Source of the DNA: an archaeon
GTDB lineage: Archaea; Nanobdellota; Nanobdellia; Woesearchaeales; UBA9642
NCBI GenBank assembly: GCA_043806035.1
Contig: JAZDHK010000023.1
Location: 21,877 to 85,876, forward strand
Length of the DNA stretch: 64,000 bases
Reading direction: 5' to 3'
Position numbers and translations under genes: made by a program. Below, one piece after another: positions 1 to 29,862 of the stretch (within the stretch, counting starts at the first letter, position 1; every line of letters begins with the position of its first letter). The notes beneath the pieces were generated by a model that saw only the letters and a list, made by a program, of their open reading frames with translations, searched no databases and had not been told where the DNA came from.

Positions 1-190
1 TGAGATTATGAAGCTGGTCCTGGACAAGTTTCTCTGGATAGGGGTCTTTATCCTTGGCTTGGGCTTTTACAAGCTTGTTGCGGGAACGGATAGCATCGCG
101 TACGGCTTCCTCATCATGCTTGCCGGCGTTGTGGTCTTGCTGATATTCAGTATCGTTATCATCAAAGAGTATGAGTTCATTAAGAGTTAA
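1..190 (+). CDS. small two-TM membrane protein; first copy of a tandem pair, probably truncated at the 5' window edge
   Basis: ORF 8..190 encodes MKLVLDKFLWIGVFILGLGFYKLVAGTDSIAYGFLIMLAGVVVLLIFS with two hydrophobic helices. It is near-identical in protein to the ORF at 733..963, but only about 85% identical in DNA, mostly through synonymous changes. Confidence 0.5.
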   Translation, partial: EIMKLVLDKFLWIGVFILGLGFYKLVAGTDSIAYGFLIMLAGVVVLLIFSIVIIKEYEFIKS

Positions 191-195
191 GAGGT

Positions 196-732
196 GTGTT
201 CATGAAATTTTCACCTAAGCGGGTACGAAAGAAGGGTTCTCTTGAGTTGAGCGTGAATGCTATCGTTGTTCTGGTCATGGCAATAGCCGTGCTCGGTTTG
301 GGATTGGCATTCATCAGAGGGCTTATTCAGAAAGGCCAGGAAAAGTTCGACACTATCATCAGCGGCACAGAATTAGAGAATCCTGCACGAGCAGACCGTC
401 CCTACATAGTGCAGACTGAGGTCGCCATCAAGAAAGGAGGCTTCGAGAAAATACTCGGTAGCGTTTACAATACGGGATCAGCGCCAATGACGGTAACGCC
501 TTCATTTGAAGGCTGTATAGGTCTGGCAGACACAGATATAATGGTGACAACAGGTACTGACTTACCCGTTCCCGAAGGTCAAGCCATAGGATTCAGGGCT
601 GGAGTCAATGTAGCAGCAGGCGTTACTGCAGGACAGTACACGTGCATTTTCAACATCAACGACACGACGGACACGGCAACACCAGCAGTCCTCTACCAGA
701 CAGGGCAGTTCTTCGTGAACGTCAAGCAGTAG
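196..732 (+). CDS. archaeal type IV pilin-like protein with class III (prepilin/archaellin-like) signal peptide
   Basis: The N-terminus MFMKFSPKRVRKKGS|LELSVNAIVVLVMAIAVLGLGLAF has a basic stretch, then G/S, then a hydrophobic helix, as expected for a PibD/FlaK-type cleavage site. The remainder is Thr/Gly-rich. Confidence 0.6.
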   Translation: MFMKFSPKRVRKKGSLELSVNAIVVLVMAIAVLGLGLAFIRGLIQKGQEKFDTIISGTELENPARADRPYIVQTEVAIKKGGFEKILGSVYNTGSAPMTVTPSFEGCIGLADTDIMVTTGTDLPVPEGQAIGFRAGVNVAAGVTAGQYTCIFNINDTTDTATPAVLYQTGQFFVNVKQ

Positions 733-963
733 GTGATTATCATGAAAAAGCATCTAACCAAACAGGAAGAATTTGAGATTATGAAGCTGGTCTTGGACAA
801 GTTCTTGTGGATTGGCGTGTTCATTCTCGGCTTGGGCTTTTACAAGCTGGTTGCCGACACGGACAGCATTGCGTACGGCTTCCTCATCATGCTTGCCGGC
901 ATTGTCGTGCTCTTGATTTTCAGCATCGTCATCATCAAAGAATACGAGTTCATCAAGAGTTAA
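733..963 (+). CDS. small two-TM membrane protein; paralogue of 1..190
   Basis: The protein is about 95% identical to the first copy. The start may be the GTG at 733 or the ATG at 742. An oligo-T tract follows the stop. Confidence 0.5.
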   Translation: MIIMKKHLTKQEEFEIMKLVLDKFLWIGVFILGLGFYKLVADTDSIAYGFLIMLAGIVVLLIFSIVIIKEYEFIKS

Positions 964-977
964 TTTTTTTTCTTTTC
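964..977 (+). terminator. oligo-T tract (archaeal intrinsic terminator-like)
   Basis: The sequence TTTTTTTTCTTTTC lies immediately after the stop at 963. Confidence 0.4.
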
Positions 978-1020
978 TAAATGATAAACATTATAAATGT
1001 AGTTCTCAGGTAGTATTTGC

Positions 1021-1551
1021 ATGAAAGGCTTCGAGCTCTCCGTCAACTTCCTCGTGGTGATTATTCTTGGCATCGCCGTGCTTGGCGGCGGCATCATGCT
1101 CATGTATAAAGTGTTCAATGCGAGCATGGACATCAGCACGAAGATCAGCGACCAGAACAGGGATGAGCTCAACTTGCTCATGAGCCAAGGCCAGCTCGTC
1201 GCCTGCCCCGTCTCCAAACAGGAAATACAAAAAGGAAAGACAGCAATTCTTCCGTTGGGCATTCTCAATAAGATAGGAGTGCCTGCCGAATTCACCATCG
1301 TTGTCGATGAGAATATACCCAACGTTGATGGAGCCACTTTCGGAAGCATTACGGGAGCGCATACGTCCTTCATTTCCGGACCGTACATGCTCGAGCACAA
1401 CAAAGACCAGACACTAGGCATAGGCATAGGGATAGACAGGACTGTTCCCAAAGGGACGTATCTGCTGGGAATTAACGTGACGTGCAACATATCTGCTGTC
1501 TGCACTCCCATCTACGATACGCCCAAGCGTGTGCAGATCGTCGTTACGTAA
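1021..1551 (+). CDS. second archaeal type IV pilin-like protein (class III signal peptide)
   Basis: The N-terminus is MKG|FELSVNFLVVIILGIAVLGGG. The mature part diverges from the pilin at 196..732. Confidence 0.6.
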   Translation: MKGFELSVNFLVVIILGIAVLGGGIMLMYKVFNASMDISTKISDQNRDELNLLMSQGQLVACPVSKQEIQKGKTAILPLGILNKIGVPAEFTIVVDENIPNVDGATFGSITGAHTSFISGPYMLEHNKDQTLGIGIGIDRTVPKGTYLLGINVTCNISAVCTPIYDTPKRVQIVVT

Positions 1552-2191
1552 GAAGCCCTTCAATCGCAGCCTTCTGATCCTTAGCAAGAGTCACGCTACT
1601 TGCAAGAAGCACGCCTGCAGCGCCGAGCTTTGCCGCAATCCTGACATCCTCTGCGTTCTGGATGCCTGCTCCCACGAGAATCCTTCCTTTCATGCTTTCG
1701 CCGAGCAGCTCGACCGTTTTCGTTATGACTTCTGGCTTTGCCTGGCTGACAGAAATCTTCCCCCCTATCAGTTCTGGAGGTTCGACGGCGATGAAATCAG
1801 GATTGTACTGAGCCAGCTCTTTTCCTTTCTCGGGCGTGTTCGCGCAAAGCAGCACTTTCAGCTTGAGTTCATGAGCTCGCGTTATTGTTTTTGCGATGGT
1901 CTCATCAGAAATTTGCTTTTCTGAATGGTTCAACAACACGCCGGCAGCACCTGCTTCCTTCACCGCTTCCAATGTTATGGATCCCGTGCTTTTTCCCGGC
2001 AGTGAAAAATCAGCATGCTGCACGTACACGGGAATATGCACCGCTCTCGCTGTCTCTTTCAAGTCAATGGCGGGCACGCAGACCAAAAAATCAACGTGCT
2101 TTTCCTTGCCTACTTCTTCACAGAATTTTGCAAGCGTGATGGCATTGCTACCGCTGCTCTCCTTGTACGTCTTGCAGTTGATGGCAATCAT
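1544..2191 (-). CDS. tpiA: triosephosphate isomerase, archaeal type
   Basis: The 215-aa product contains LNHSE and IAVEPPELIGG, which are typical of archaeal TIM, and the length fits. Confidence 0.9.
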   Translation of the reverse strand: MIAINCKTYKESSGSNAITLAKFCEEVGKEKHVDFLVCVPAIDLKETARAVHIPVYVQHADFSLPGKSTGSITLEAVKEAGAAGVLLNHSEKQISDETIAKTITRAHELKLKVLLCANTPEKGKELAQYNPDFIAVEPPELIGGKISVSQAKPEVITKTVELLGESMKGRILVGAGIQNAEDVRIAAKLGAAGVLLASSVTLAKDQKAAIEGLLT

Positions 2192-2475
2192 TTTTTCGTA
2201 CCCGGTTGAAAACTCGGGTCAACATTCCTGATAGGTTGCCTGGGCGCCTCTCCGAATGCTTTCCTCTCGCTCGGTGCAGGCCGTTCAGCATAGCCTTTCT
2301 TGTTCAGGCATTTCTTGCAATACTTCTTGCCGTTCGCTTCGAGGATGCAGTTATCGCAGATTGGTGTGCTGCACCAACTGCACAATGCCACGATGGGTTC
2401 CCGATGGATGAAACATTTTTGTTCTGGACTCGGCTTGAATACCATACTACCACCTTTGAAAGACATACTGCACAA
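2188..2475 (-). CDS. small Cys-rich zinc-finger protein (B-box-like C/H pattern)
   Basis: The pattern CFIH..C..C..C..C..C..C is present. The ORF overlaps tpiA by 4 nt, which suggests an operon. The true start may be the internal Met (MVFKPS). Confidence 0.35.
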   Translation of the reverse strand: MCSMSFKGGSMVFKPSPEQKCFIHREPIVALCSWCSTPICDNCILEANGKKYCKKCLNKKGYAERPAPSERKAFGEAPRQPIRNVDPSFQPGTKK

Positions 2476-2621
2476 CGCCTTAAATATCTTTTCATTTTAG
2501 AGTAGTGCAAACAAACGTTATCGTGTGTTGCCTGCGCGTCTTCAGCGCAAGGTATTTAAAGAAAGCCGTCCGTGAGTGCAGAAAGAGGGACACGGTGTTG
2601 CTTTCATTCCAGGAATCATCC

Positions 2622-3227
2622 ATGTTGCTGAACAAGTACAAGCTGCCATTGGTGCAAAGCACAGTCATCCAGGCACAGACGCCCTACACGTTCTCTTATC
2701 CAGTGGTGCTCAAGGCGTTCAGTCCCAGCATCGTCCACAAGACAGAAAAAGGAGCGGTTGTTCGTGACATCAGGAATGCCGCCGAGCTCGAGTCAGCACG
2801 CGTCATGATGAAGGCGCGCCTTGCAGGGAAGAATCCCACGTTTGTGGTGCAGCCGCAACTCACTGGCGTTGAGCTCATCTTGGGCATGAAGACCGACCCG
2901 CAGTTCGGAAAAGTAATCATTTTCGGCGTGGGAGGCATTCTTGTTGAGCTCTTCAAGGACGTCACGTTCAGGATTGCCCCGCTCAAGAGAAAAGATGCTC
3001 AGGACATGCTGCAGGGCATCAAGGCAAAGAAACTGCTCGACGGATTCAGGAACTTGCCTGCAGTGGACAAGCCAACCCTTGTCCGCCTGCTTATGAAACT
3101 GTCTGATCTCGTCATGCACGAAGACATCGATGAGCTCGACCTCAATCCCGTCATCGCCTCAGGAAAAAACATATTCATCGTCGATGCGCGAATAATAGTA
3201 TCTCTCTCCAAGCGAGGAAAACCATGA
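2622..3227 (+). CDS. acetyl-CoA synthetase (ADP-forming) beta subunit, ATP-grasp domain
   Basis: The product is MLLNKYKLPLV...GGILVELFKDV...LDLNPV, an ATP-grasp fold of the ACD beta type. The ORF starts upstream at 2505, but homology begins at this Met. Confidence 0.65.
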   Translation: MLLNKYKLPLVQSTVIQAQTPYTFSYPVVLKAFSPSIVHKTEKGAVVRDIRNAAELESARVMMKARLAGKNPTFVVQPQLTGVELILGMKTDPQFGKVIIFGVGGILVELFKDVTFRIAPLKRKDAQDMLQGIKAKKLLDGFRNLPAVDKPTLVRLLMKLSDLVMHEDIDELDLNPVIASGKNIFIVDARIIVSLSKRGKP

Positions 3228-4582
3228 ATGCGCTCTTCACGCCAGAACACGTCGCTGTCATCGGGGCAAGCAGGGATCCCGAAAGCGTAGGCTACGGCAT
3301 TCTCAAGAACCTTCTGGAAGGGGGAACACTTGAGCGTGCAACACCCTTCAACGGCAGCGTCTATCCTGTCAACCCGAACGCGCAGGAGATTCTCGGCAGG
3401 AAATGCTTTTCCAGCATCCTTGACTTGAAAAAAGTGGACCTGGCCATCATCTGCGTTCCCGCACCGCTCGTCATGCAGGTCCTGCAGCAGGCAGCCCAGA
3501 AAAAAACCAAGGCAGCAATCATCATCAGTGCAGGATTTGGAGAGACGGGCAAAGCGGGGCACAAGCAGGAAGAAGTGCTCGCTAGGCTTGCCGCAACGAA
3601 AGGCATGCTGCTCCTTGGCCCCAATTGTCTCGGCATCATCAACACAAGCGCAAACTTGAATGCGAGTTTTGCCCCGGCCATGCCGCACAAAGGAAGCATA
3701 GCGCTTGTCAGCCAATCGGGAGCTCTGGTCGACAGCATTATTGATTGGAGTCTCTCCGCAAAATACGGATTCTCAAAAATCATCAGTTATGGCAATGCAG
3801 CAGGACAGTCTCTTCCAGACTTTCTTTCATACTTGGACAAGGATAAGGAGACAAAAGTGATAACGTGCTATGTCGAGGGTATCAGCGATGGTAAGAAGCT
3901 CATGGGCGTCCTTAGAGACATGCACAAGCCCGTCGTCATGCTCAAGGCGGGCAAGACGGAAAAGGGCAGCAAGGCAGTCTCGAGTCACACGGGGAGCCTC
4001 GCCGGCAGTTACGATATTACGAAAGCGGCATTGCAGCAGGCTGGCGCGTATGTTGCCGAAACTCTCGAGGAAATGTTTGATGTCGCAAAATGCCTCACCA
4101 TTCCAAAACTCAGAAAACCTGTAGCGATCATCACGAACGGCGGCGGTTGTGGCGTTCTTTGTGCAGATGCATGCGAACAACAAGGCATTCCTCTCGCAAC
4201 GCTTTCCTCGTCAGTGCTGCGCAAACTTGATGCTTCAAAAAAGATGCATCCCTCCTATTCTCGTGCGAATCCCCTGGACATTATCGGCGACGCTCGTTCT
4301 GAACGGTATGGTGCGGCACTCTCGGTGCTGCTTAGTGATGCGAGCATCGGTGGCGTCATTGTCATCCAGACCCTGCAGACGATGACGCAGACGCTCAAGG
4401 ACGCAGAGCTCATGATTGCCGCAAAGAAATACAATAAACCCATCGTGGCGTGCTTCATGGGGGGAAAATACACGCAGGCAGCAATTGAACTTCTCGAGAA
4501 GAATGGCATTCCTAATTATTCTGACCCATTCAGGGCGGCGCGGGCGATGGCGGCAATTCTCCTAAAGAACGCAATTCATTGA
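3224..4582 (+). CDS. acetyl-CoA synthetase (ADP-forming) alpha subunit (CoA-binding/ligase-CoA domain)
   Basis: The product VAVIGASRDPESVGYGILKNL ... GPNCLGIINT has CoA-binding and succinyl-CoA-synthetase-like domains. It overlaps the beta gene by 4 nt (ATGA). Confidence 0.8.
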   Translation: MNALFTPEHVAVIGASRDPESVGYGILKNLLEGGTLERATPFNGSVYPVNPNAQEILGRKCFSSILDLKKVDLAIICVPAPLVMQVLQQAAQKKTKAAIIISAGFGETGKAGHKQEEVLARLAATKGMLLLGPNCLGIINTSANLNASFAPAMPHKGSIALVSQSGALVDSIIDWSLSAKYGFSKIISYGNAAGQSLPDFLSYLDKDKETKVITCYVEGISDGKKLMGVLRDMHKPVVMLKAGKTEKGSKAVSSHTGSLAGSYDITKAALQQAGAYVAETLEEMFDVAKCLTIPKLRKPVAIITNGGGCGVLCADACEQQGIPLATLSSSVLRKLDASKKMHPSYSRANPLDIIGDARSERYGAALSVLLSDASIGGVIVIQTLQTMTQTLKDAELMIAAKKYNKPIVACFMGGKYTQAAIELLEKNGIPNYSDPFRAARAMAAILLKNAIH

Positions 4583-4979
4583 ACAGTCTCTTCTCGTTTT
4601 CAAACATGATGATTGAGTCGAGTTCTTCAGGTGTCAAGAAGATATACGCTTCATTCTCCTCATTGAGCGTTATTTTTGTATCGTTCATCCTTGCAACGAA
4701 GATAGCCTTGTCCTGTCCATCATAGCCGAGCTCTTTAACGAATTTCTCTTCCCACACATACGTCAAGTTCTTTGATGCTTGATGCACGTCGGTGAAATCA
4801 GATTTCATTAACCCGAGTTCTTCACGCATCTCTCTATAAAACGTGTCAAGCATTTTCTCGCCTGGCTCGCTGCCGCCGCCAGGCAGTGCGTACTGGTTTG
4901 CAGGATAGTGTTGCTTGCGCACGAGCAAGAGTGCTCTGCCCTTGAAGATCATGGCGCACGCGCCCTTGCGATAGTTCAT
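4530..4979 (-). CDS. NUDIX hydrolase
   Basis: The Nudix box is GGGSEPGEKMLDTFYREMREELGL. Confidence 0.7.
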   Translation of the reverse strand: MNYRKGACAMIFKGRALLLVRKQHYPANQYALPGGGSEPGEKMLDTFYREMREELGLMKSDFTDVHQASKNLTYVWEEKFVKELGYDGQDKAIFVARMNDTKITLNEENEAYIFLTPEELDSIIMFENEKRLFNELRSLGELPPSPAPP

Positions 4980-5758
4980 CCTATTTTCCTCAAGCGTGTC
5001 AGCATAATTGCAGCGACGATGACCATGCCAATGCATGCATACTGCCCCATGCTGATGCCAAATAGCCGAGGGTCTTCTCTCCAGAAATTCTCGACGAACC
5101 TGAACAGGCCGTACAGCAGCCAGAACAGCCAGAAGACGAATCCTGGCGTATGCAGAAAGGAGTGTTTTGACGCTGTTTTTTTCTTGTTGTGCACGAACAG
5201 CAGCGAGAAGAAGATGATGATAGTATACGCTGCCTCATACAATTGCGACGGATGCCTGCACCCCTCCGCTCCTTGAAACTGGACACACCACGGAACATCA
5301 GTTATTGTCCCCCATAGTTCTCCGTTGATGAAGTTGGCTATCCTGCCGAGGAACAAGGCGAGCGCTGCGGGGATGACGAGCAGGTCTGCAAGATCGTAAA
5401 AGAAGATCTTTTTTTTCTTGCAATACCAATACGTGACGAGCGCTGCCCCGAGAAGCCCGCCGTGAAAGCTCAATCCCCCTTCCCAAATCCTGAATATGCC
5501 GACAGGATCGGTGAAGATGGCCGGCCAGTAGAAGAAGACATAATCAATGACTCTTGCCCCGACGACGACGCCAAGCACCAACCACATGATGTAATCATCA
5601 ACGTCCTTGAGTTGCATGTGCTTAATTTTTCCCTGCTTGACGAAATGCCGCAGCAGGAGATAGGCAAGAATAAAGCCGAGCGCGTAGATGATGCCATAAT
5701 AGCGAATGCTCAACGGACCGATGCTGAACAGGACGGGATTGATGTTGTGGATGAACAT
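4976..5758 (-). CDS. lgt: prolipoprotein diacylglyceryl transferase homologue
   Basis: The Lgt signature GRIANFINGELWG is intact. The polytopic membrane protein is 260 aa with aromatic-rich helices. Confidence 0.8.
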   Translation of the reverse strand: MFIHNINPVLFSIGPLSIRYYGIIYALGFILAYLLLRHFVKQGKIKHMQLKDVDDYIMWLVLGVVVGARVIDYVFFYWPAIFTDPVGIFRIWEGGLSFHGGLLGAALVTYWYCKKKKIFFYDLADLLVIPAALALFLGRIANFINGELWGTITDVPWCVQFQGAEGCRHPSQLYEAAYTIIIFFSLLFVHNKKKTASKHSFLHTPGFVFWLFWLLYGLFRFVENFWREDPRLFGISMGQYACIGMVIVAAIMLTRLRKIG

Positions 5759-6825
5759 TATCGCTCCAGGATAAAATACCCTAATTCTTTCGTCGCCAGT
5801 ACGAAGAGCGCGTGGCTGAGGATGTGCGCTTGTGCAGCGTGTTGATGCTTGTTCTCGAACAGTTGTTCGGGCAGGTATTCTTCAGCGTGATGCAGGACAA
5901 ACTGGTAGTAGGGCGTTGCCTTCTTCCTCTCGCCAGTCTTTGCATGGTAGATGGCCATGAGGAAGTTGAGTGCTGGCCAACTTCCCCCTCCTTTCCGGAC
6001 GTGCACATTCTGCAGCATCATGCCGTCGTACAGATCGTGCTCGAAGCGCTGTACTCCATTATTCTTAACGAGCGTAGATTCTAACGTGTTGACGAACTGC
6101 ATGAGTCGCTTGTTCGGCAAGTGATAGATGACCAGAGGGTAGATGATGAAGAGCAGGCTTGCATCGACATGCGCATCATGCACGTGCTTGCCATGGCTTC
6201 GTGTCAGCATCTCAGGAAAGTCGAGTTGCTTTTTCATCTGTTCAGCAATCCGCATGTACTTGTCGTGGTGCAGGAATTGGTGTGCGCACGAGAGCCCCCT
6301 GCAGCAAGCGGCCAGGCTGTACAAGAAATTCTCCTCGAATTGGGGGAAGCTGTGGAATTCTCCCCAGATGTCTTTTGCAAGGATGCTGAAATGCGTCTCT
6401 TTCCAATCTTCGCATAATGCATCGCTGAGCTTTCTCACAAGAGGTTTGATCTTTTCTGCGCGATGCGGGGTTTGTTTGTAGTGGTGCCAGATGGCGAACA
6501 GCAGCAGCCCCGCCTGGTCGGGCTGGTAGCCTTGGATGAGTCGTTTGCCTTCTGTCGAGTAGAGGGTGTGAATCCTTCCCGTCTTGCTGATGTCTGCGTT
6601 CTTCTTCAGGCACCACATGAAGAATTTTTCGGGGATGTCATCGAAGCCGAGGACGTCCGCGGCGAGGCAGGCAAAACTGGCATCCCGGACGGAGACGGTG
6701 TGCTTGTTCTGTATGCATTTATGATGCTGGAAGTCTTGATGTGCTGAAACAATAGCTCCGTTCTTGAGCGCGTTCTTTTTCAGCACGTGTCTTGTCTTGT
6801 GGAGGAGTTGGTTTATTGTGTCCAT
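5758..6825 (-). CDS. six-hairpin (alpha/alpha)6 glycosidase-like protein, GH15/GH63-like
   Basis: The product is 355 aa with W-rich helical repeats (DIWGEF, GGGSWPALNF). Resemblance to glucoamylase/trehalase-like enzymes is weak. Confidence 0.3.
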   Translation of the reverse strand: MDTINQLLHKTRHVLKKNALKNGAIVSAHQDFQHHKCIQNKHTVSVRDASFACLAADVLGFDDIPEKFFMWCLKKNADISKTGRIHTLYSTEGKRLIQGYQPDQAGLLLFAIWHHYKQTPHRAEKIKPLVRKLSDALCEDWKETHFSILAKDIWGEFHSFPQFEENFLYSLAACCRGLSCAHQFLHHDKYMRIAEQMKKQLDFPEMLTRSHGKHVHDAHVDASLLFIIYPLVIYHLPNKRLMQFVNTLESTLVKNNGVQRFEHDLYDGMMLQNVHVRKGGGSWPALNFLMAIYHAKTGERKKATPYYQFVLHHAEEYLPEQLFENKHQHAAQAHILSHALFVLATKELGYFILER

Positions 6826-7367
6826 CAGTGCACCTGTTTGGTGAGGCAGTTGCAGGGCTCGGTCGCCTGCGGCATTGCTTTCAGGTCATCAAAGTACACT
6901 CTGTTTTCTGGTTTTATCTGCGTGGCAAAGGGGCAGGTGGTGAAATGGTATCTGCTTGCGTCCTTGGCGATGATGAACTTGTGACTTTTGTTGACTTTGT
7001 TCTTGAGACAGATGCACGGTTCGTAGTTCTTTGCCTGCGCATCGCGCTCCTGTTCGAAGAAGAAGAGATTCTCCTCGAGTATTTTCTTGATGAACGGGCA
7101 GTGGATGTGATGATACTTTCCCTTATGATATTTGTTGGTCTGCATGCTGACGATGAACTTGTCCTCGAGTTTTTTCTTCTCGATGCCAATGATGGACTTC
7201 GGCGCGGCAGGCACATGAGGTTCCTCTTTTTGCGGCGCAGGCTGCACGATTAAGTCTTTTCTCCTGTAGAGCACGTTGCATTTGCCGCAGAAAAACCTAT
7301 ACTCGTCATTGCCATGCACGTGCCCCCCACACATAGGACATGCGTGCTCTATCCGTTCCATGTGCAT
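6825..7367 (-). CDS. zinc-ribbon protein with two tandem Ada-type metal-binding (Ada_Zn_binding-like) domains
   Basis: An N-terminal CPMCGG..CGKC ribbon is followed by two repeats of a YH..HCP...(~25 aa)...EPC.CL module, which resembles FCRPSC...RPCKRC in Ada. Confidence 0.45.
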   Translation of the reverse strand: MHMERIEHACPMCGGHVHGNDEYRFFCGKCNVLYRRKDLIVQPAPQKEEPHVPAAPKSIIGIEKKKLEDKFIVSMQTNKYHKGKYHHIHCPFIKKILEENLFFFEQERDAQAKNYEPCICLKNKVNKSHKFIIAKDASRYHFTTCPFATQIKPENRVYFDDLKAMPQATEPCNCLTKQVH

Positions 7368-7406
7368 GACGGTGTTGTCGTCAGGAACGTTTAAATATGT
7401 TGCGCT

Positions 7407-8324
7407 TTAATAGCTTCCTGCTTTCTTCCCAGAAACGTACTCGTACGCTGCTTTCGCGGCAGTCGCACCAAAACCCGCGGCAGTAATGGTTTGCTTCTGG
7501 AAGACAGGCGTGATGTCTCCCGCAGCAAAAACGCCAGGGATGTTCGTCGCCTGTTTTCTATCAACGATGATGTGGCCTCGCTCATCACAAGGTATGCCGA
7601 GATTGCTAAATATTTTACTGTTCGGCTCGCTGCCTATCTCGATGAACAGACCGTCGAGCTTGAGTGTCTTCCCGTTATCAAGTTTTGCCCACTCCACATT
7701 TTTTGAGCCGCCAACTTCAAGAACGTTCGTTTTTGTGAGGACGACGAGTTTTGGATTATCCTTGATCCTGTCAAAATTGATCGGTTCTGCGCGGACGTTC
7801 TCTCCCCGATAGATGATGGTGACGTGCTTTGCCATAGTGAGTAATAGCTCTGCGGCAGTGACTGCTCCATCATTCCCGCCTACGACGCCGACGATTTTTC
7901 CTTTGTAGAATGCTGCATCGCACGTGGCACAGTACGCAATACCCCTTCCCGTGTATTCTTTCTCGCCAGGAATGTTGAGCTTTCTCTTGGCACTGCCTGC
8001 AGCAATGATGATGCTCTTCCCCAAGAATTCCTTCCCGCCTTCTGTCTTGACAGAAAAACCATTCTTTTTCTTGCCCACCTTTGTCACGCGATCAAAGACG
8101 ATGGGCACGTGCCAATGCTCCACCTGCTCCTTGAACTTTTGCATGAGCTCGATGCCGCTGATGCTCGTGAAGCCAGGATAGTTCTCGACGTTGTGCGCTT
8201 CTGTCAACGTCCCCCCATCCATGAAGCCGATGACGAGTGTCTTCAAATTATAGCGTGCGCTGTAGAGCGCCGCAGGATAACCTGCACTGCCCGTCCCGAT
8301 GATGATGACGTCATACGTGTCCAT
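7407..8324 (-). CDS. trxB: thioredoxin-disulfide reductase
   Basis: The FAD motif DVIIIGTGSAGYPAA and the redox-active CATC are present. The start is placed at MDTYD. Confidence 0.9.
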   Translation of the reverse strand: MDTYDVIIIGTGSAGYPAALYSARYNLKTLVIGFMDGGTLTEAHNVENYPGFTSISGIELMQKFKEQVEHWHVPIVFDRVTKVGKKKNGFSVKTEGGKEFLGKSIIIAAGSAKRKLNIPGEKEYTGRGIAYCATCDAAFYKGKIVGVVGGNDGAVTAAELLLTMAKHVTIIYRGENVRAEPINFDRIKDNPKLVVLTKTNVLEVGGSKNVEWAKLDNGKTLKLDGLFIEIGSEPNSKIFSNLGIPCDERGHIIVDRKQATNIPGVFAAGDITPVFQKQTITAAGFGATAAKAAYEYVSGKKAGSY

Positions 8325-8377
8325 GCTTGGAAACAACCGCCGAGCGTATTTAAATGTTATGGAGTGCTGACGTGAGG

Positions 8378-8500
8378 GGCCTTGTTGAAAAAGTCCACCT
8401 AGCGCAGTCATTCGAGCAGACGGCTATTGCGATTGCCCTCGAGACGGGCAGTGGTGAACCGTGCTGTACGGAGCGTGGACTAGAGACGTTCAACAAGGCC
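8378..8500 (+). mobile_element. MITE-like element copy A: 123 bp, 12-bp perfect TIR (GGCCTTGTTGAA/TTCAACAAGGCC), flanked by 9-bp direct repeat GACGTGAGG
   Basis: The same element occurs in reverse orientation at 29516..29638, flanked there by a different 9-bp duplication. Between the conserved flanks the 23-nt core differs entirely between the copies. An internal 7-bp helix (AGTCCAC/GTGGACT) is also present. Confidence 0.75.
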
Positions 8501-8554
8501 GACGTGAGGAACAAACTTTTTAAAGCATCGCGGAAGAGCAGCAGGAGAGGTGTT

Positions 8555-11500
8555 GCTTTGGGATATGATTTCAAGCACATAGAGGAGCAGGTGGGCAAGC
8601 ACTGGCAACAGCACCAGAAGGAGATAGATGTACTGCTCAAGTACAATCCCGAGAAAAAACTGTATTCCTGGCTGGAAGGACCACCAACAGCAAACGCCCC
8701 TCCTGCGCTGCATCATGTCGAAGTGAGGGTTTTCAAAGATGTCGTCCTCAGGTTCAAGACCATGCAAGGTTATTCCGTGCCGAGAAAGGGCGGCTGGGAC
8801 TGCCACGGACTTCCCGTCGAAGTACAAGTGGAAAAAAAACTCAAGCTCAAGAGCAAGAAAGACGTCATCACATACGGCGTCCCCAAGTTCATTGAAGCAT
8901 GCAAGAAGGATGTCTTCACGTTCGTCAAGGACTGGAATGACAACACGAAAAAGCTCGGCTTCTGGGTGGACTTGCCTGATGCATACATGACGCTTGCCAC
9001 GCCGTACATGGAGAGCGTGTGGTGGTCGCTCAAAGAGCTCTTCAACAAAAAACTGCTCTATGAAGGATACAAGGTAGTTCCCTACTGTCCGAGATGTGAG
9101 ACTCCGTTGAGCAGCCACGAAGTCGCCTTAGGCTACCAGGACATCGAGGAAAAAACAGTCGTTGTCACGTTCTCCTTGAAGGACAAGCTGCCCGGCATGC
9201 CAAAAGAGAAGGTGCAGTTGCTCGTCTGGACAACAACACCTTGGACCCTGCCAGCGAATGCAAGCATCGCCGTGCACAAAGACATCCCTTACGCACTCAT
9301 CAGCAGTCACGGTACGTATTATGTACTGGCGGAAGAGCTCGTCAGCAAATACTTCAAGCATGCAGAAACGATACAAGTATTTCCTGGAGCTGATCTTGTC
9401 GGCAAACACTATGAGCCGCTCTTCCCCTACTTCACGCTCAAGAAAGGATTCTTCATCATGGACGCGGACTACGTCACCGTCAGCGAAGGCACAGGCCTTG
9501 TCCATCAAGCGTCGGCGTACGGCGAAGTGGACTATGATGCAAACCAGAAAGCAGGTGTCGGCTTCATCCATCCCGTGCTGAAGGACGGCACGTTCAGCGA
9601 CGAAATAACTGACTTCAAAGGCATCTTCGTCAAGGACGCAGACCCGCTCATCATTGCAAAACTCGACAAGGACGGCAAGCTCTTCAAAATCCTCGAGTAT
9701 GTGCACAGCTATCCTTTCTGCTGGCGCTGCAAAAGCCCCTTGCTCTATTATGCCATGGACACGTGGTTTGTGAAAGTCAGCGAGTTCAGGCAGCAGCTCC
9801 TCGCAAAAAACCAGGAAATCCATTGGTATCCTGATTCTGTCAAGGATGGCAGGTTCGGGAATTGGCTCGAGGGGGCAAAGGATTGGGCATTGTCCAGGAA
9901 CAAATTCTGGGGGACACCATTGCCCATCTGGATATGCAATGTCTGCAAGCACCAAGAAGCGATAGGCAGCATCAAAGAGCTCGAGGAAAAGACAGGAGCA
10001 AAACACATTACTGATCTGCACATCATGTCTGTCGATACCTTGACCATGCCTTGCCCCGCATGCGAAAAGAAAGGAAAGCACACGACGATGCGACGAACTC
10101 CCGAAGTCATCGACTGCTGGTATGATTCCGGCTCCGCAGCATTCGCACAATTCCACTATCCTTTCGAGAACAAGGAACTCTTCGAGAAACGATTCCCCTA
10201 TGACTTCATCGTCGAAGCAATAGACCAGACGAGAGGATGGTTCTACACGTTGCACGTCCTTGGCGTGCTACTCTTCGACCAGCCTGCCTATAGGAACGTT
10301 GCGGTCGGTGGCCTGCTCTGCGACGACAACGGCGAGAAAATGTCAAAATCGAAAGGGAACATCGTTTCCCCTGAGGAAACGTTCACCCAGTACGGCGTCG
10401 ATGCCGTGCGCTTGGCCATGTGCTCCTATCCTTTGGGTAATCAGATACGCTATGGGCCGAGCGTCTTCAAAGATACGCTTATGCCCTACTTCAACACGCT
10501 CTGGAACTGTTTCATCTTCGTGCAGAACTACTTCAAGAACAACGGGCTGGATGGAAAAATGCAGAGTGACTTGCAGCAGGAGGATCTGTGGATACTCAGC
10601 AAGACAAACACACTTATCTCCACGGTGACGGAAGACCTGGAAAAGCACGAATACAGCCATGCAATCGTAACCATCATGTCCTTCGTCATTGATGACTTCT
10701 CTCGAGGATACATTAAGATGATCAGGGAGCGCACGGCAACAGCGAATAGTGCGGCTGCATTCTCATTGCGATACGTGCTTGAACGCGTCATCCTCATAAC
10801 CGCACCATTCACGCCATACCTTGCAGAATGGCTCTATCAAGACTTCATGAAAGAAGGAGGCATGCCCTGGAGCGTCCACGTCCTTTCCTGGCCGAGCAAA
10901 GAAGACGACCGTATACTGCCAGATATGGAAAGGCACATGCGGCATGTCCAAGTGCTCATAACGGGAATATTAGGAGCGAGAGAGAAAGCACAGCTCGGCG
11001 TGCGCTGGCCCATCAGCAAAGCGATCATCGACCTGCATGACAATGACGTGCCCATCAAGGACGCATACGCGGCATTCACAGATATGGTGCACCAGCAGAC
11101 GAACGTCAAGGAAATACTTTTTGAGAAGTTCACCGAGCTCGACTATGACTTCAAGCCGAACTATGATGCGCTTGGCAGAGCGCTAGGGGAGCACACGGCA
11201 GACGTCCTTACTGCACTTCCCGCTCAGAAGGGACGCATCCTGAGCGAGCTCAGGCAAGGTAAGGAAGAATTCCTCATTGCAGGCCAACTCATCAAGAAAG
11301 AACACTTGCTCATAACAAAGATTCCCCCAACGCACCTCGTCTACGCTGACTTCACGGAATGCAGTACACTCTACCTTGAAACGACCACGAATGATGCACT
11401 GCTTGCCGAAGGGTATGCGCGTGAACTAACCCGCAGGATTCAGGAGGCGAGAAAGGAACTCGGCCTCAAAAAAACAGACACGCTCGCCAGCGTTGCTATC

Positions 11501-11653
11501 ATTGGAGAAGATCTGGGTCTTGCTCCTTTCTTCGAGGAAATCAAGAAAAAAGTTGGTGCAAAGCAAATTTCTGCAACGCCTTTGCCGCACAAGGACTTTG
11601 CAAAAGTGTTCACGATCAAGCAGAAGACCTTCACCATCAACGTCCAGAAATAA
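8555..11653 (+). CDS. ileS: isoleucyl-tRNA synthetase
   Basis: The product contains KMSKSKGN and P..H..H-like class I motifs, is about 1030 aa, and has an archaeal-type C-terminus. ORF 8354.. runs through MITE copy A, so I place the real start near the TTG at 8555 (GYDFKHIEEQVGKHW). Confidence 0.9.
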   Translation, partial: ALGYDFKHIEEQVGKHWQQHQKEIDVLLKYNPEKKLYSWLEGPPTANAPPALHHVEVRVFKDVVLRFKTMQGYSVPRKGGWDCHGLPVEVQVEKKLKLKSKKDVITYGVPKFIEACKKDVFTFVKDWNDNTKKLGFWVDLPDAYMTLATPYMESVWWSLKELFNKKLLYEGYKVVPYCPRCETPLSSHEVALGYQDIEEKTVVVTFSLKDKLPGMPKEKVQLLVWTTTPWTLPANASIAVHKDIPYALISSHGTYYVLAEELVSKYFKHAETIQVFPGADLVGKHYEPLFPYFTLKKGFFIMDADYVTVSEGTGLVHQASAYGEVDYDANQKAGVGFIHPVLKDGTFSDEITDFKGIFVKDADPLIIAKLDKDGKLFKILEYVHSYPFCWRCKSPLLYYAMDTWFVKVSEFRQQLLAKNQEIHWYPDSVKDGRFGNWLEGAKDWALSRNKFWGTPLPIWICNVCKHQEAIGSIKELEEKTGAKHITDLHIMSVDTLTMPCPACEKKGKHTTMRRTPEVIDCWYDSGSAAFAQFHYPFENKELFEKRFPYDFIVEAIDQTRGWFYTLHVLGVLLFDQPAYRNVAVGGLLCDDNGEKMSKSKGNIVSPEETFTQYGVDAVRLAMCSYPLGNQIRYGPSVFKDTLMPYFNTLWNCFIFVQNYFKNNGLDGKMQSDLQQEDLWILSKTNTLISTVTEDLEKHEYSHAIVTIMSFVIDDFSRGYIKMIRERTATANSAAAFSLRYVLERVILITAPFTPYLAEWLYQDFMKEGGMPWSVHVLSWPSKEDDRILPDMERHMRHVQVLITGILGAREKAQLGVRWPISKAIIDLHDNDVPIKDAYAAFTDMVHQQTNVKEILFEKFTELDYDFKPNYDALGRALGEHTADVLTALPAQKGRILSELRQGKEEFLIAGQLIKKEHLLITKIPPTHLVYADFTECSTLYLETTTNDALLAEGYARELTRRIQEARKELGLKKTDTLASVAIIGEDLGLAPFFEEIKKKVGAKQISATPLPHKDFAKVFTIKQKTFTINVQK

Positions 11654-11683
11654 TGCAGGATTTCCTGCACTACTTTTATATAG
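11654..11683 (+). promoter_or_regulatory. hairpin TGCAGGAtttCCTGCA (ileS terminator-like) followed by TATA-like TTTTATATAG about 23 nt before the exonuclease ATG
   Basis: A perfect 7-bp inverted repeat is followed by an AT-rich box, and the spacing fits a leaderless archaeal promoter. Confidence 0.4.
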
Positions 11684-11705
11684 TACCTTGCCCTCATGCA
11701 GGAGT

Positions 11706-12275
11706 ATGACGTATTTTGTCATCGATGTAGAAACCATCCCTCTGGACATGCAATTGCATGCATCGCTGTCGGAGGAGGACAGGAAAAAGCTGCTCAACCC
11801 TATTGATTCTCGCATCATCGCCATAGGACTAAGGACGAAAGGGAAGAACATCATCTTCCAAGGGGAGGATGAACAAGCCCTGCTTTTCGACTTCTGGAAA
11901 CTGTGGAAAGAGCTCAAGCCGAACATGCTCGTCAGGGTAGTTGGCTTCAACCTCGTTGATTTTGACATTCCGTTCCTCGTGGCGAGAAGCTTCATTAATG
12001 ACGTTGCCATAGTGCCGTTTTCTGTCAAGGAATTGCTCGACCTTCGCGACAAGATAAACGCATACAGGTATGGGCACAGCAGGGGAAAGCTCAAGGAGTA
12101 TGCAGTATTGCTCGGCCTGCCGGTCATGGACGTTGATGGCAGCGACGTTGCGCGATTGTGGCAGGATGGCCAGCACGAGCTCATCAGGGCGTATTTGGAG
12201 AGAGACTTAGAAATTACGGATGCACTCTACCTCAGAGCTGTCCGCCTCGGCATTGCAGACATCTCAAGATTCTAA
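11706..12275 (+). CDS. predicted 3'-5' exonuclease, RNase H-like/DEDD fold (PolB-exonuclease-related)
   Basis: The motifs FVIDVETIP, RIIAIGL and GFNLVDFDIPFL are present. Confidence 0.55.
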   Translation: MTYFVIDVETIPLDMQLHASLSEEDRKKLLNPIDSRIIAIGLRTKGKNIIFQGEDEQALLFDFWKLWKELKPNMLVRVVGFNLVDFDIPFLVARSFINDVAIVPFSVKELLDLRDKINAYRYGHSRGKLKEYAVLLGLPVMDVDGSDVARLWQDGQHELIRAYLERDLEITDALYLRAVRLGIADISRF

Positions 12276-12317
12276 AACTATATAAACCACGTCTTCCTGT
12301 AAGCGAGGGGTGATACC

Positions 12318-12512
12318 ATGTGTTGTGAGAAATGTTCGAAAATGGGAGGGTTGCTGTTCTTTCTGTTCGGCATCATCTTCCTGCTGCAAAACCTGAACGT
12401 CTGGAATTTTTGGGGAATCCAGTGGTACACGGTGCTGTTCGTGCTCATGGGCTTGGGCATGATATGCATGGCGAGCTGCAAGGAATGCCAGACGCCAAAG
12501 AAAAAGAAGTAA
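12318..12512 (+). CDS. small two-TM membrane protein
   Basis: The 64-aa ORF is hydrophobic with a KKKK C-terminus and is followed by T-tracts. Confidence 0.3.
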   Translation: MCCEKCSKMGGLLFFLFGIIFLLQNLNVWNFWGIQWYTVLFVLMGLGMICMASCKECQTPKKKK

Positions 12513-12544
12513 TTTTTTAAACTCTTTTTTTTAGTATAGTCAGC

Positions 12545-13000
12545 GTGGGTACGATATCTAAGGAACAGCCGCTTGCCGAGTTGACGCTACGCAAGTACGA
12601 AAAACCAGGCAACCTTACTGATAGGGAGCTTGTGAAGAAACTCTGCCTTTCCCTCGGGTTATTGCAGGCGGGAGACTCTCGCGATGTCATCGTCGATGTG
12701 TTCATGGTCCTGCTTTCGAGAAAGCAGCTTTCCTCTGAGTCAATCGAACAAAAGGTGGTTGAGCAGCGCACATCTCTCAAGCTGCCTCTTATCGGTATTG
12801 CGGGCTCGAATATCAGACGACAGCTCTTGCGCTTGCGGGAGGCGTTCCTTGTCGAGAAGGTCGCGAACGAATACAGAATTGCAGAGAACGCCAAACTTGC
12901 TGATCTGTTCACGGAGAAGATAGAGCGATACGTACTGCCGTCGATACTCGGCAGAATAAGAGAATATTTAACGGAAGCTGATGAGAGGTTCAAAGGATGA
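12545..13000 (+). CDS. hypothetical protein
   Basis: The 151-aa ORF has a GTG start and no recognisable motif. Confidence 0.3.
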   Translation: MGTISKEQPLAELTLRKYEKPGNLTDRELVKKLCLSLGLLQAGDSRDVIVDVFMVLLSRKQLSSESIEQKVVEQRTSLKLPLIGIAGSNIRRQLLRLREAFLVEKVANEYRIAENAKLADLFTEKIERYVLPSILGRIREYLTEADERFKG

Positions 13001-29481: not shown

Positions 29482-29515
29482 TGTGCTTTCTCTTTATAAT
29501 TGTTGCGCTGCGTTG

Positions 29516-29638
29516 GGCCTTGTTGAACGTCTTCAGTCCACGCTCCGTACCGCAAGGAAAACAGCTGCGCGCCTCGAGGGCAATCGCAATAGCCGTCTGC
29601 TCGAATGACTGCGCTAGGTGGACTTTTTCAACAAGGCC
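29516..29638 (-). mobile_element. MITE-like element copy B (reverse orientation), flanked by 9-bp direct repeat GCTGCGTTG
   Basis: The TIRs and conserved flanks are identical to copy A, while the 23-nt core is different (GCGCGCAGCTGTTTTCCTTGCGG). Confidence 0.75.
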
Positions 29639-29691
29639 GCTGCGTTGTGAATCCGCAAGCTTTTTAAACAAATCGTCAGTTCTTTCGCTTC

Positions 29692-29862
29692 ATGGTAACC
29701 ATAAAATGCAGCTCAAGCCACGTCCCTATAACAAATGATTCAGGCAGTGCACGATTCCCCTGCCCCAACTGCGGAAAAACAGAGATCATACGCAGCCGAA
29801 GAGCGCGGGAAGTGGTCATGAAGTACACCTGTCCTGAGTGCGGCTTCGAAGGACCAAACTAG
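29692..29862 (+). CDS. small zinc-ribbon protein (COG2888-like, usually linked to aEF-1beta)
   Basis: The 56-aa product is MGTIK...CPNCGKTEIIRSRRAREVVMKYTCPECGFEGPN. It lies directly upstream of aEF-1beta, and it falls below the ORF-track length cutoff. Confidence 0.45.
   Translation: MVTIKCSSSHVPITNDSGSARFPCPNCGKTEIIRSRRAREVVMKYTCPECGFEGPN

Follow-up and report, generated by a model that had tools for sequence, protein, structure and literature searches.

A putative IS903-group MITE present twice between divergent genes of a DPANN archaeon

The two loci and the repeated element

The window, meaning the whole 64-kb stretch of DNA that was analysed, contains two intergenic regions that hold the same short sequence in opposite orientations, and both copies lie between divergently transcribed gene pairs (Table 1). 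Copy A separates a thioredoxin-reductase-like oxidoreductase gene from ileS, and copy B separates the gene of a short hypothetical protein from that of a small zinc-finger protein, after which the next ORF is aEF-1beta (PF00736). The zinc-finger and aEF-1beta neighbours and the relatives of the IleRS fit a host that is a DPANN archaeon of the Nano/Woesearchaeota-like kind. The only near-identical database entry for this IleRS is the deposited archaeal MAG protein MFH1174282.1. The next relatives, which belong to MAGs of Nanoarchaeota, Woesearchaeota and other DPANN, are only 55% identical and, with ileS loci that lack collinearity with the window, offer no empty site for comparison.

Table 1. 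Coordinates, strands and supporting details of the genes and element parts at the two loci of the window.
Feature	Position	Strand	Details
Pyridine nucleotide-disulphide (thioredoxin-reductase-like) oxidoreductase	7407..8324	-	Pfam PF07992, E = 1.5e-44; TATA-like box 8349-8354
Left TSD, copy A (GACGTGAGG)	8369..8377	.	Same as 8501-8509
MITE copy A, 123 bp	8378..8500	+	112/123 vs reverse complement of 29516-29638 (alignment of the loci)
Left TIR, copy A (GGCCTTGTTGAA)	8378..8389	+	Perfect inverted repeat of 8489-8500
Subterminal inverted repeat AGTCCAC	8392..8398	+	Pairs with GTGGACT 8475-8481
Variable core, copy A (ACGGGCAGTGGTGAACCGTGCTG)	8444..8466	+	9/11 inter-copy differences
Right TIR, copy A	8489..8500	-	IS903 IR match 13/18
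Right TSD, copy A (GACGTGAGG)	8501..8509	.	Same as 8369-8377
ileS, start TTG 8558	8558..11653	+	IleRS homology; TATA-like box 8519-8524, between MITE and gene
Hypothetical protein, 119 aa	29110..29469	-	TATA-like box 29493-29499
TSD, copy B (GCTGCGTTG)	29507..29515	.	Same as 29639-29647
MITE copy B, 123 bp, opposite orientation	29516..29638	-	Alignment, repeat finder
Variable core, copy B (GCGCGCAGCTGTTTTCCTTGCGG on - strand)	29550..29572	-	Mismatch clustering
TSD, copy B (GCTGCGTTG)	29639..29647	.	Same as 29507-29515
Small zinc-finger protein (HVO_2753-like)	29692..29862	+	Pfam PF07754, E = 1.2e-15; TATA-like box 29663-29668

A preliminary description of this DNA had placed a 123-bp element at both sites, the second time reverse-complemented, with 12-bp terminal inverted repeats (TIRs) and 9-bp target-site duplications (TSDs), and reading and alignment of the loci bear out these coordinates as well as the perfection of both kinds of repeat. 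Each copy starts with GGCCTTGTTGAA and ends with TTCAACAAGGCC, the two TIRs matching at 12/12 positions, and the subterminal 7-bp inverted pair AGTCCAC/GTGGACT, earlier listed as an internal helix, is identical in copies A and B. Each copy is also bounded by its own perfect 9-bp direct repeat, and the chance of two perfect 9-mer duplications lying exactly at the element boundaries is about (4^-9)^2. Outside the 9-mers the two loci are unrelated and give no alignment, either directly or with a repeat finder. As the 9-mers differ between the loci and the flanks do not align, they represent TSDs and do not mark the limits of some longer duplicated segment, so that the earlier proposal of a transposed MITE is upheld by the TIRs and the per-copy TSDs, and the objection that had been raised in advance against it, that the 9-mers might belong to a longer duplicated segment, falls away. 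Over the 64-kb window the repeat finder returned just one inverted pair, 126 nt long and with members 21 kb apart, and no third copy of the 123-bp element. The MITE lacks a transposase and its open frames span only 41 codons without real homologues; one reading frame is open through both copies, and a reading of the 123-bp sequence revealed no internal TATA-like box. The G+C content is 57% in the MITE and 49% in the whole window, which possibly hints at a foreign origin.

The placement of the element relative to the flanking promoters differs from what had first been proposed. A TATA-like hexamer precedes each of the four start codons, that of ileS by 36 nt and the other three, which are ATG codons of seemingly leaderless genes, by 26-27 nt. 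At both loci the MITE with its TSD fills what was originally a 30-32-nt spacer between back-to-back TATA-like boxes. Copy A had been assigned to the ileS leader, an assignment that follows from assuming a bacterial gene organisation in what is an archaeal host; between the element and the TTG start of ileS there is a TATA-like box, and the divergent gene is equally near. From the archaeal promoter consensus, copy A probably lies upstream of the ileS core promoter and outside the leader. The statement that each copy faces its downstream gene in the same sense likewise carries no weight, because both copies are situated between divergent genes. Insertions between the TATA boxes were likely tolerated because they would break neither a core promoter nor an ORF, and the spacer insertions probably reflect survivorship in a very compact genome, although with n=2 this is not separable from a target preference.

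IS903-group termini and elements with the same ends

The termini of the element are of the GGC-TTTGTTGAATAAATC type that characterises the IS903 group, and they agree with the inverted repeat (IR) of IS903 at 11 of the terminal 12 bp. Of 5,426 complete E. coli genomes, 1,943 contain this IR, in features annotated as 'IS5-like element IS903B family transposase', and the one E. coli copy of IS903B that was examined measures 1057 bp and has GGCTTTGTTGAATAAATC at both ends. Over this 18-bp IR the left end of the window element matches at 15/18 positions and the right end at 12-13/18, with the right end departing from the IR at positions 13-16. As this divergence lies within the 18-bp IR, the true partner differs from IS903 itself. 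The size of the duplication agrees with that made by IS903, which is listed as 9 bp (table, PMC2577343). The IS903 target motif WTTYA-N9-TRAAW, which is a preference and not a strict requirement, is fitted by one of the four half-sites (TGAAT, to the right of copy B), and the others agree at 2-3 of 5 positions.

An IS with matching TIRs had been suggested as the autonomous partner. In the 64-kb window tblastn detected no IS903-type transposase, but the partner type was found in other organisms: it is an IS of 1075 bp whose ends read GGCCTTGTTGAATAAATC, which encodes an IS903-group transposase and is associated with a 9-bp TSD. When viral contigs were scanned for GGCCTTGTTGAAWAARTC, a complete 1075-bp IS with perfect 18-bp TIRs came to light on contig L007 (1963-3037), and a second IS of 1075 bp on contig L014 (5910-6984) shares with it perfect GGCCTTGTTGAATAAATC ends. 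The 316-aa transposase of the L007 IS shares 39% identity with that of IS903B (E = 2e-71) and matches the NCBIfam equivalog NF033579 with 278 bits against a cut-off of 140, a model that the IS903B transposase matches as well. The L014 transposase (308 aa) is 79% identical to that of L007, and a perfect 9-bp TSD, TTTTGAAAC, surrounds the L014 IS.

The surroundings of these two ISs were also inspected. The L007 IS, on an IMG/VR contig, lacks a TSD, the flanking sequences being GGCTGTCAT and ACGGTATCC, and a 228-aa ORF upstream of it (1287-1973) enters the left TIR, so that the IS seems either to have cut short this perhaps viral gene on insertion or to have come in after a rearrangement. L014 is rich in mobile-element genes over positions 1-12927, including IS66 parts, an IS110 transposase, a phage integrase and a NikA/relaxase, and the region is probably a plasmid or an integrative element of a bacterial host.

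Non-autonomous elements with the same ends were recovered from metagenomes. A scan with the TIR-pair pattern detected two independent loci, each in two samples, with MITEs of 120 and 121 bp that have the termini of the window element and interiors completely unrelated to it. Their termini extend to GGCCTTGTTGAATAA(A/T)TC, a longer form that resembles the IS903 IR, and they are flanked by the 9-bp repeats GGGGAGAGG (9/9) and GAGCACCGA/GAGCCCCGA (8/9), so that other metagenomes do contain further elements that agree with the window element in their termini, approximately in length, and in a TSD of 9 bp. The 121-bp MITE (L002 11402-11522, identical to L004 6546-6666) is palindromic almost throughout, its arms measuring ~45 bp, and has a ThrRS gene on one side and an MgsA/RarA-type ATPase gene on the other, on a contig of 58% GC that is probably bacterial. 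On L001 a lone TIR-like GGCCTTGCTGAAAAAATC at 283-300, about 430 bp from the MITE of that contig (716-835), may end a second, degraded element. Exact-match scans with a 30-mer and with the TIR-pair pattern gave no match among 185,579 species genomes, a collection that does not include the host genome, and the viral contigs held no match to an internal 22-mer. The interior of the window MITE was also compared with the L007, L014 and IS903B elements as possible sources, and these were rejected as the similarity ends after 12 bp.

On independent elements, GGCCTTGTTGAA termini, an IS903-group transposase and a 9-bp duplication are thus linked, and the window element fits into this chain. Judged from its ends and duplications, the 123-bp sequence is a predicted non-autonomous MITE with termini of the IS903 group within the IS5 family. 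In the proposed mechanism, an IS903-like DDE transposase encoded elsewhere in the genome or in a partner organism would bind the GGCCTTGTTGAA termini in trans, excise or copy the 123-bp element and insert it at a target cut with a 9-bp stagger, whose repair would leave the 9-bp direct repeats. The IS903 transposase is known to prefer acting in cis (Derbyshire et al. 1990), which makes mobilisation of a MITE in trans less obvious.

Clustered core differences and competing readings

Most of the divergence between the two copies is confined to a 23-nt core at element positions 67-89, which lies in the right half of the element and in which 9 of 23 positions differ. The core had been called entirely different between the copies, and this does not stand, since 14 of the 23 positions (61%) are identical; the clustering of the differences is nevertheless real, as in simulations with random placement at least 9 of the 11 mismatches fall within 23 nt with P = 9e-5. 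The flanks are not base-for-base identical as had been claimed, owing to two mismatches at positions 105-106 (AG in copy A, GA in copy B). The core difference would most likely stem from one multi-base event in the imperfectly palindromic centre of the element, for which short-patch conversion from an unseen family member and a replication template switch are candidates, or alternatively copies A and B could descend from two sub-lineages. A single event or sub-lineages are favoured because the alternative needs purifying selection on ~100 of the 123 nt of a MITE, and a functional variable cassette is less likely, although with two copies to compare this preference is itself only weakly supported. 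Quasi-palindrome correction was considered as a source of the cluster and rejected, with self-complementarity at 41 matched positions in copy A and 38 in copy B and no perfectly corrected tract. The explanation that best accounts for the whole, and that is very probably correct, is an IS903-group MITE with two insertions between divergent TATA boxes; its core, less firmly, would reflect a single event or separate sub-lineages.

The preliminary description had instead proposed a structured and probably transcribed element that contains a hairpin or cassette of variable sequence, and in its fuller form this reading makes the sequence a functional cis-regulatory element or the gene of a structured small RNA, with a conserved scaffold of ~100 nt, a variable 23-nt guide- or antisense-like cassette and transposon-like ends that are secondary. 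It draws on the strong clustering of the differences, with only 2 in the remaining ~100 nt, on the position of both copies next to promoters, and on folding energies, which for both strands are better than those of shuffled controls (z = -5.6 to -2.4). The folding signal, however, comes mainly from the TIRs and is expected of any MITE, and Rfam gives 0 matches at the gathering score and 0 at E<=1. When copy A is folded, its core is paired to the invariant left arm, but 7 of the 8 variable paired positions are broken in copy B without compensation, a comparison of two sequences that has minimal power. The absence of an internal TATA-like box and the entirely unrelated interiors of MITEs with identical termini also speak against a conserved RNA. 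A host source or target for the cassette might be seen in GACGGGCAGTG in core A (8441-8451), which is the reverse complement of positions 8285-8295 in the GxGxxG-coding region of the oxidoreductase gene (11 nt, extending to 14/15). Although only 1 of 500 shuffles is as good, 2.7% of random real 29-mers of the window equal or exceed this match, and with two copies tested, capture from or complementarity to the host was set aside as a probable coincidence; the best local match of core B is not significant (168/500), and neither core has any other match in the 64-kb window, the best showing 6-7 mismatches. With Rfam empty, the pairing broken in copy B and the cores 61% identical, the structured-RNA reading appears unlikely.

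A related reading holds that the ~100 nt are under selection as an RNA or as a protein-binding module between divergent archaeal promoters, and that the centre is hypervariable in every copy and either host-derived or host-directed. If true, the element would be MITE-borne and programmable and not a passive transposon, and the purifying selection that it would demand makes this a distinctly improbable account of the clustered differences.

It is very improbable that the 123-bp sequence is coding, as an N-terminal extension of IleRS with a related short ORF in copy B. The deposited IleRS (P0001, MFH1174282.1, 1093 aa) begins within the TSD, at a GTG at 8372, and continues across the MITE in the frame that is open in both copies, which adds 62 N-terminal residues (window 8372-8557), 41 of them encoded by the MITE. 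In an alignment of the N-termini of P0001 and 29 homologues, the start of nearly every homologue falls 2-10 residues ahead of a conserved YDFK, no homologue shares the extension, and the longer N-terminal extensions of P0004 and P0009 are their own and unrelated to it. These starts near YDFK place the true ileS start at TTG 8558, which is preceded by an SD-like GGAGAGGTG, and identify the 62-residue extension as an annotation artefact. In the same frame copy B is joined to no gene. When 1.84 billion proteins were searched exhaustively with a profile, only two unrelated repeat proteins were returned and P0001 itself was not recovered, and a composite 224-aa query of the translated MITE frames gave no match in a search that likewise missed its positive control, P0001.

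Diversification of the core by a diversity-generating retroelement or another form of targeted hypermutation deserves almost no credence, as its only attraction is that the substitutions cluster in a short tract, which is non-coding and only 23 nt long, and the mismatches are not restricted to adenine in either copy or on either strand (A/B = A/G, G/C, T/C, G/T, G/T, A/T, A/T, G/T, T/G). Segmental duplication or recombination of host sequence without transposition, which the sight of two inverted copies 21 kb apart might suggest, is effectively refuted by the boundary structure and has next to no probability, since homology ends exactly at the TIR ends, each copy carries a different perfect 9-bp repeat between unrelated flanks, and the same termini and TSD length recur on independent elements in other organisms.

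Known relatives and significance

The closest described analogue of the IS903-group MITE is MITEAba12 of Acinetobacter with its mobilising element ISAba12 (IS5 family, IS903 group). MITEAba12 is 113 bp long, has the TIR GGCTTTGTTGCACAAA, a 9-bp TSD and a variable centre, and is mobilised by ISAba12, whose group makes 9-bp TSDs; its identity to candidate parent ISs is restricted to the TIRs (PMC6382973). The two MITEs resemble each other in being small (123 and 113 bp) and non-coding, in their 9-bp TSDs and in a centre that is the most variable part, and their TIRs start alike, with GGCTTTGTTG in MITEAba12 and GGCCTTGTTG in the window element (9/10), and differ at positions 11-16. In contrast to MITEAba12, which has a gammaproteobacterial host and is 78% AT, the window element belongs to a DPANN archaeon and is GC-rich (57%), and whereas the former is known together with its mobilising IS, the latter is known from sequence alone and has no co-resident parent IS in the window.

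Of the autonomous elements, E. coli IS903/IS903B (1057 bp, IS5 family) shares with the window element 11 of the terminal 12 bp, 15/18 positions of the left IR and the 9-bp TSD. Unlike IS903B, the window element has no transposase gene, matches at the right end at only 13/18 positions, departs from most of the target motif and has an unrelated interior. The L007 and L014 ISs agree with it at all of the first 12 TIR positions, among them position 4, where a C sets them apart from IS903, and diverge at positions 13-18, which read TAAATC in the ISs and AAAGTC or CGTCTC at the two ends of the window element. These ISs are autonomous (316- and 308-aa transposases, NF033579) whereas the window MITE has no transposase, and they probably reside in bacterial or plasmid hosts, the L014 copy being flanked by relaxase, IS66 and IS110 genes. 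In its size class of ~100-150 bp, its hairpin-forming ability and its intergenic location, often near promoters, the element also recalls Correia/NEMIS, ERIC and REP/BIME sequences. In those families, however, TSDs are either TA or missing and the termini are unrelated; REPs, moreover, depend on Y1 (RAYT) transposases for their mobility. It is with the IS903 group, and not with Correia, ERIC or REP, that the window element is placed by its 9-bp TSD and its GGC...TTGTTGAA ends.

The element is an ordinary kind of mobile DNA, and its sole oddity is the cluster of differences in the middle. MITEs are well known from archaea, and a recent census drew attention to one Woesearchaeal genome in which they number 105 per Mb (PMC11602168); MITE-rich DPANN and IS903-group MITEs with 9-bp TSDs are both already known and will not surprise specialists. 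The novel points are modest and comprise the cross-domain termini, the IleRS artefact, the insertion geometry and the unexplained core cluster. The known range of MITEs with IS903-type termini and 9-bp TSDs now includes a DPANN archaeon, and the near-identity of the terminal 12 bp to an E. coli IS suggests either spread across domains or very strong conservation of the interaction between the transposase and the ends. When MAGs are annotated, open frames within MITEs lead to wrong gene starts, of which MFH1174282.1 is an example, and insertions in a gap of ~30 nt between TATA boxes show where a very compact archaeal genome has tolerated them.

A further repeat in the window is unrelated to the MITE. 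Positions 1-190 and 774-963 form a direct repeat of 85% identity that shares a terminal TAA and differs mostly at every third base, and it looks like a pair of tandem paralogous genes for small hydrophobic proteins.
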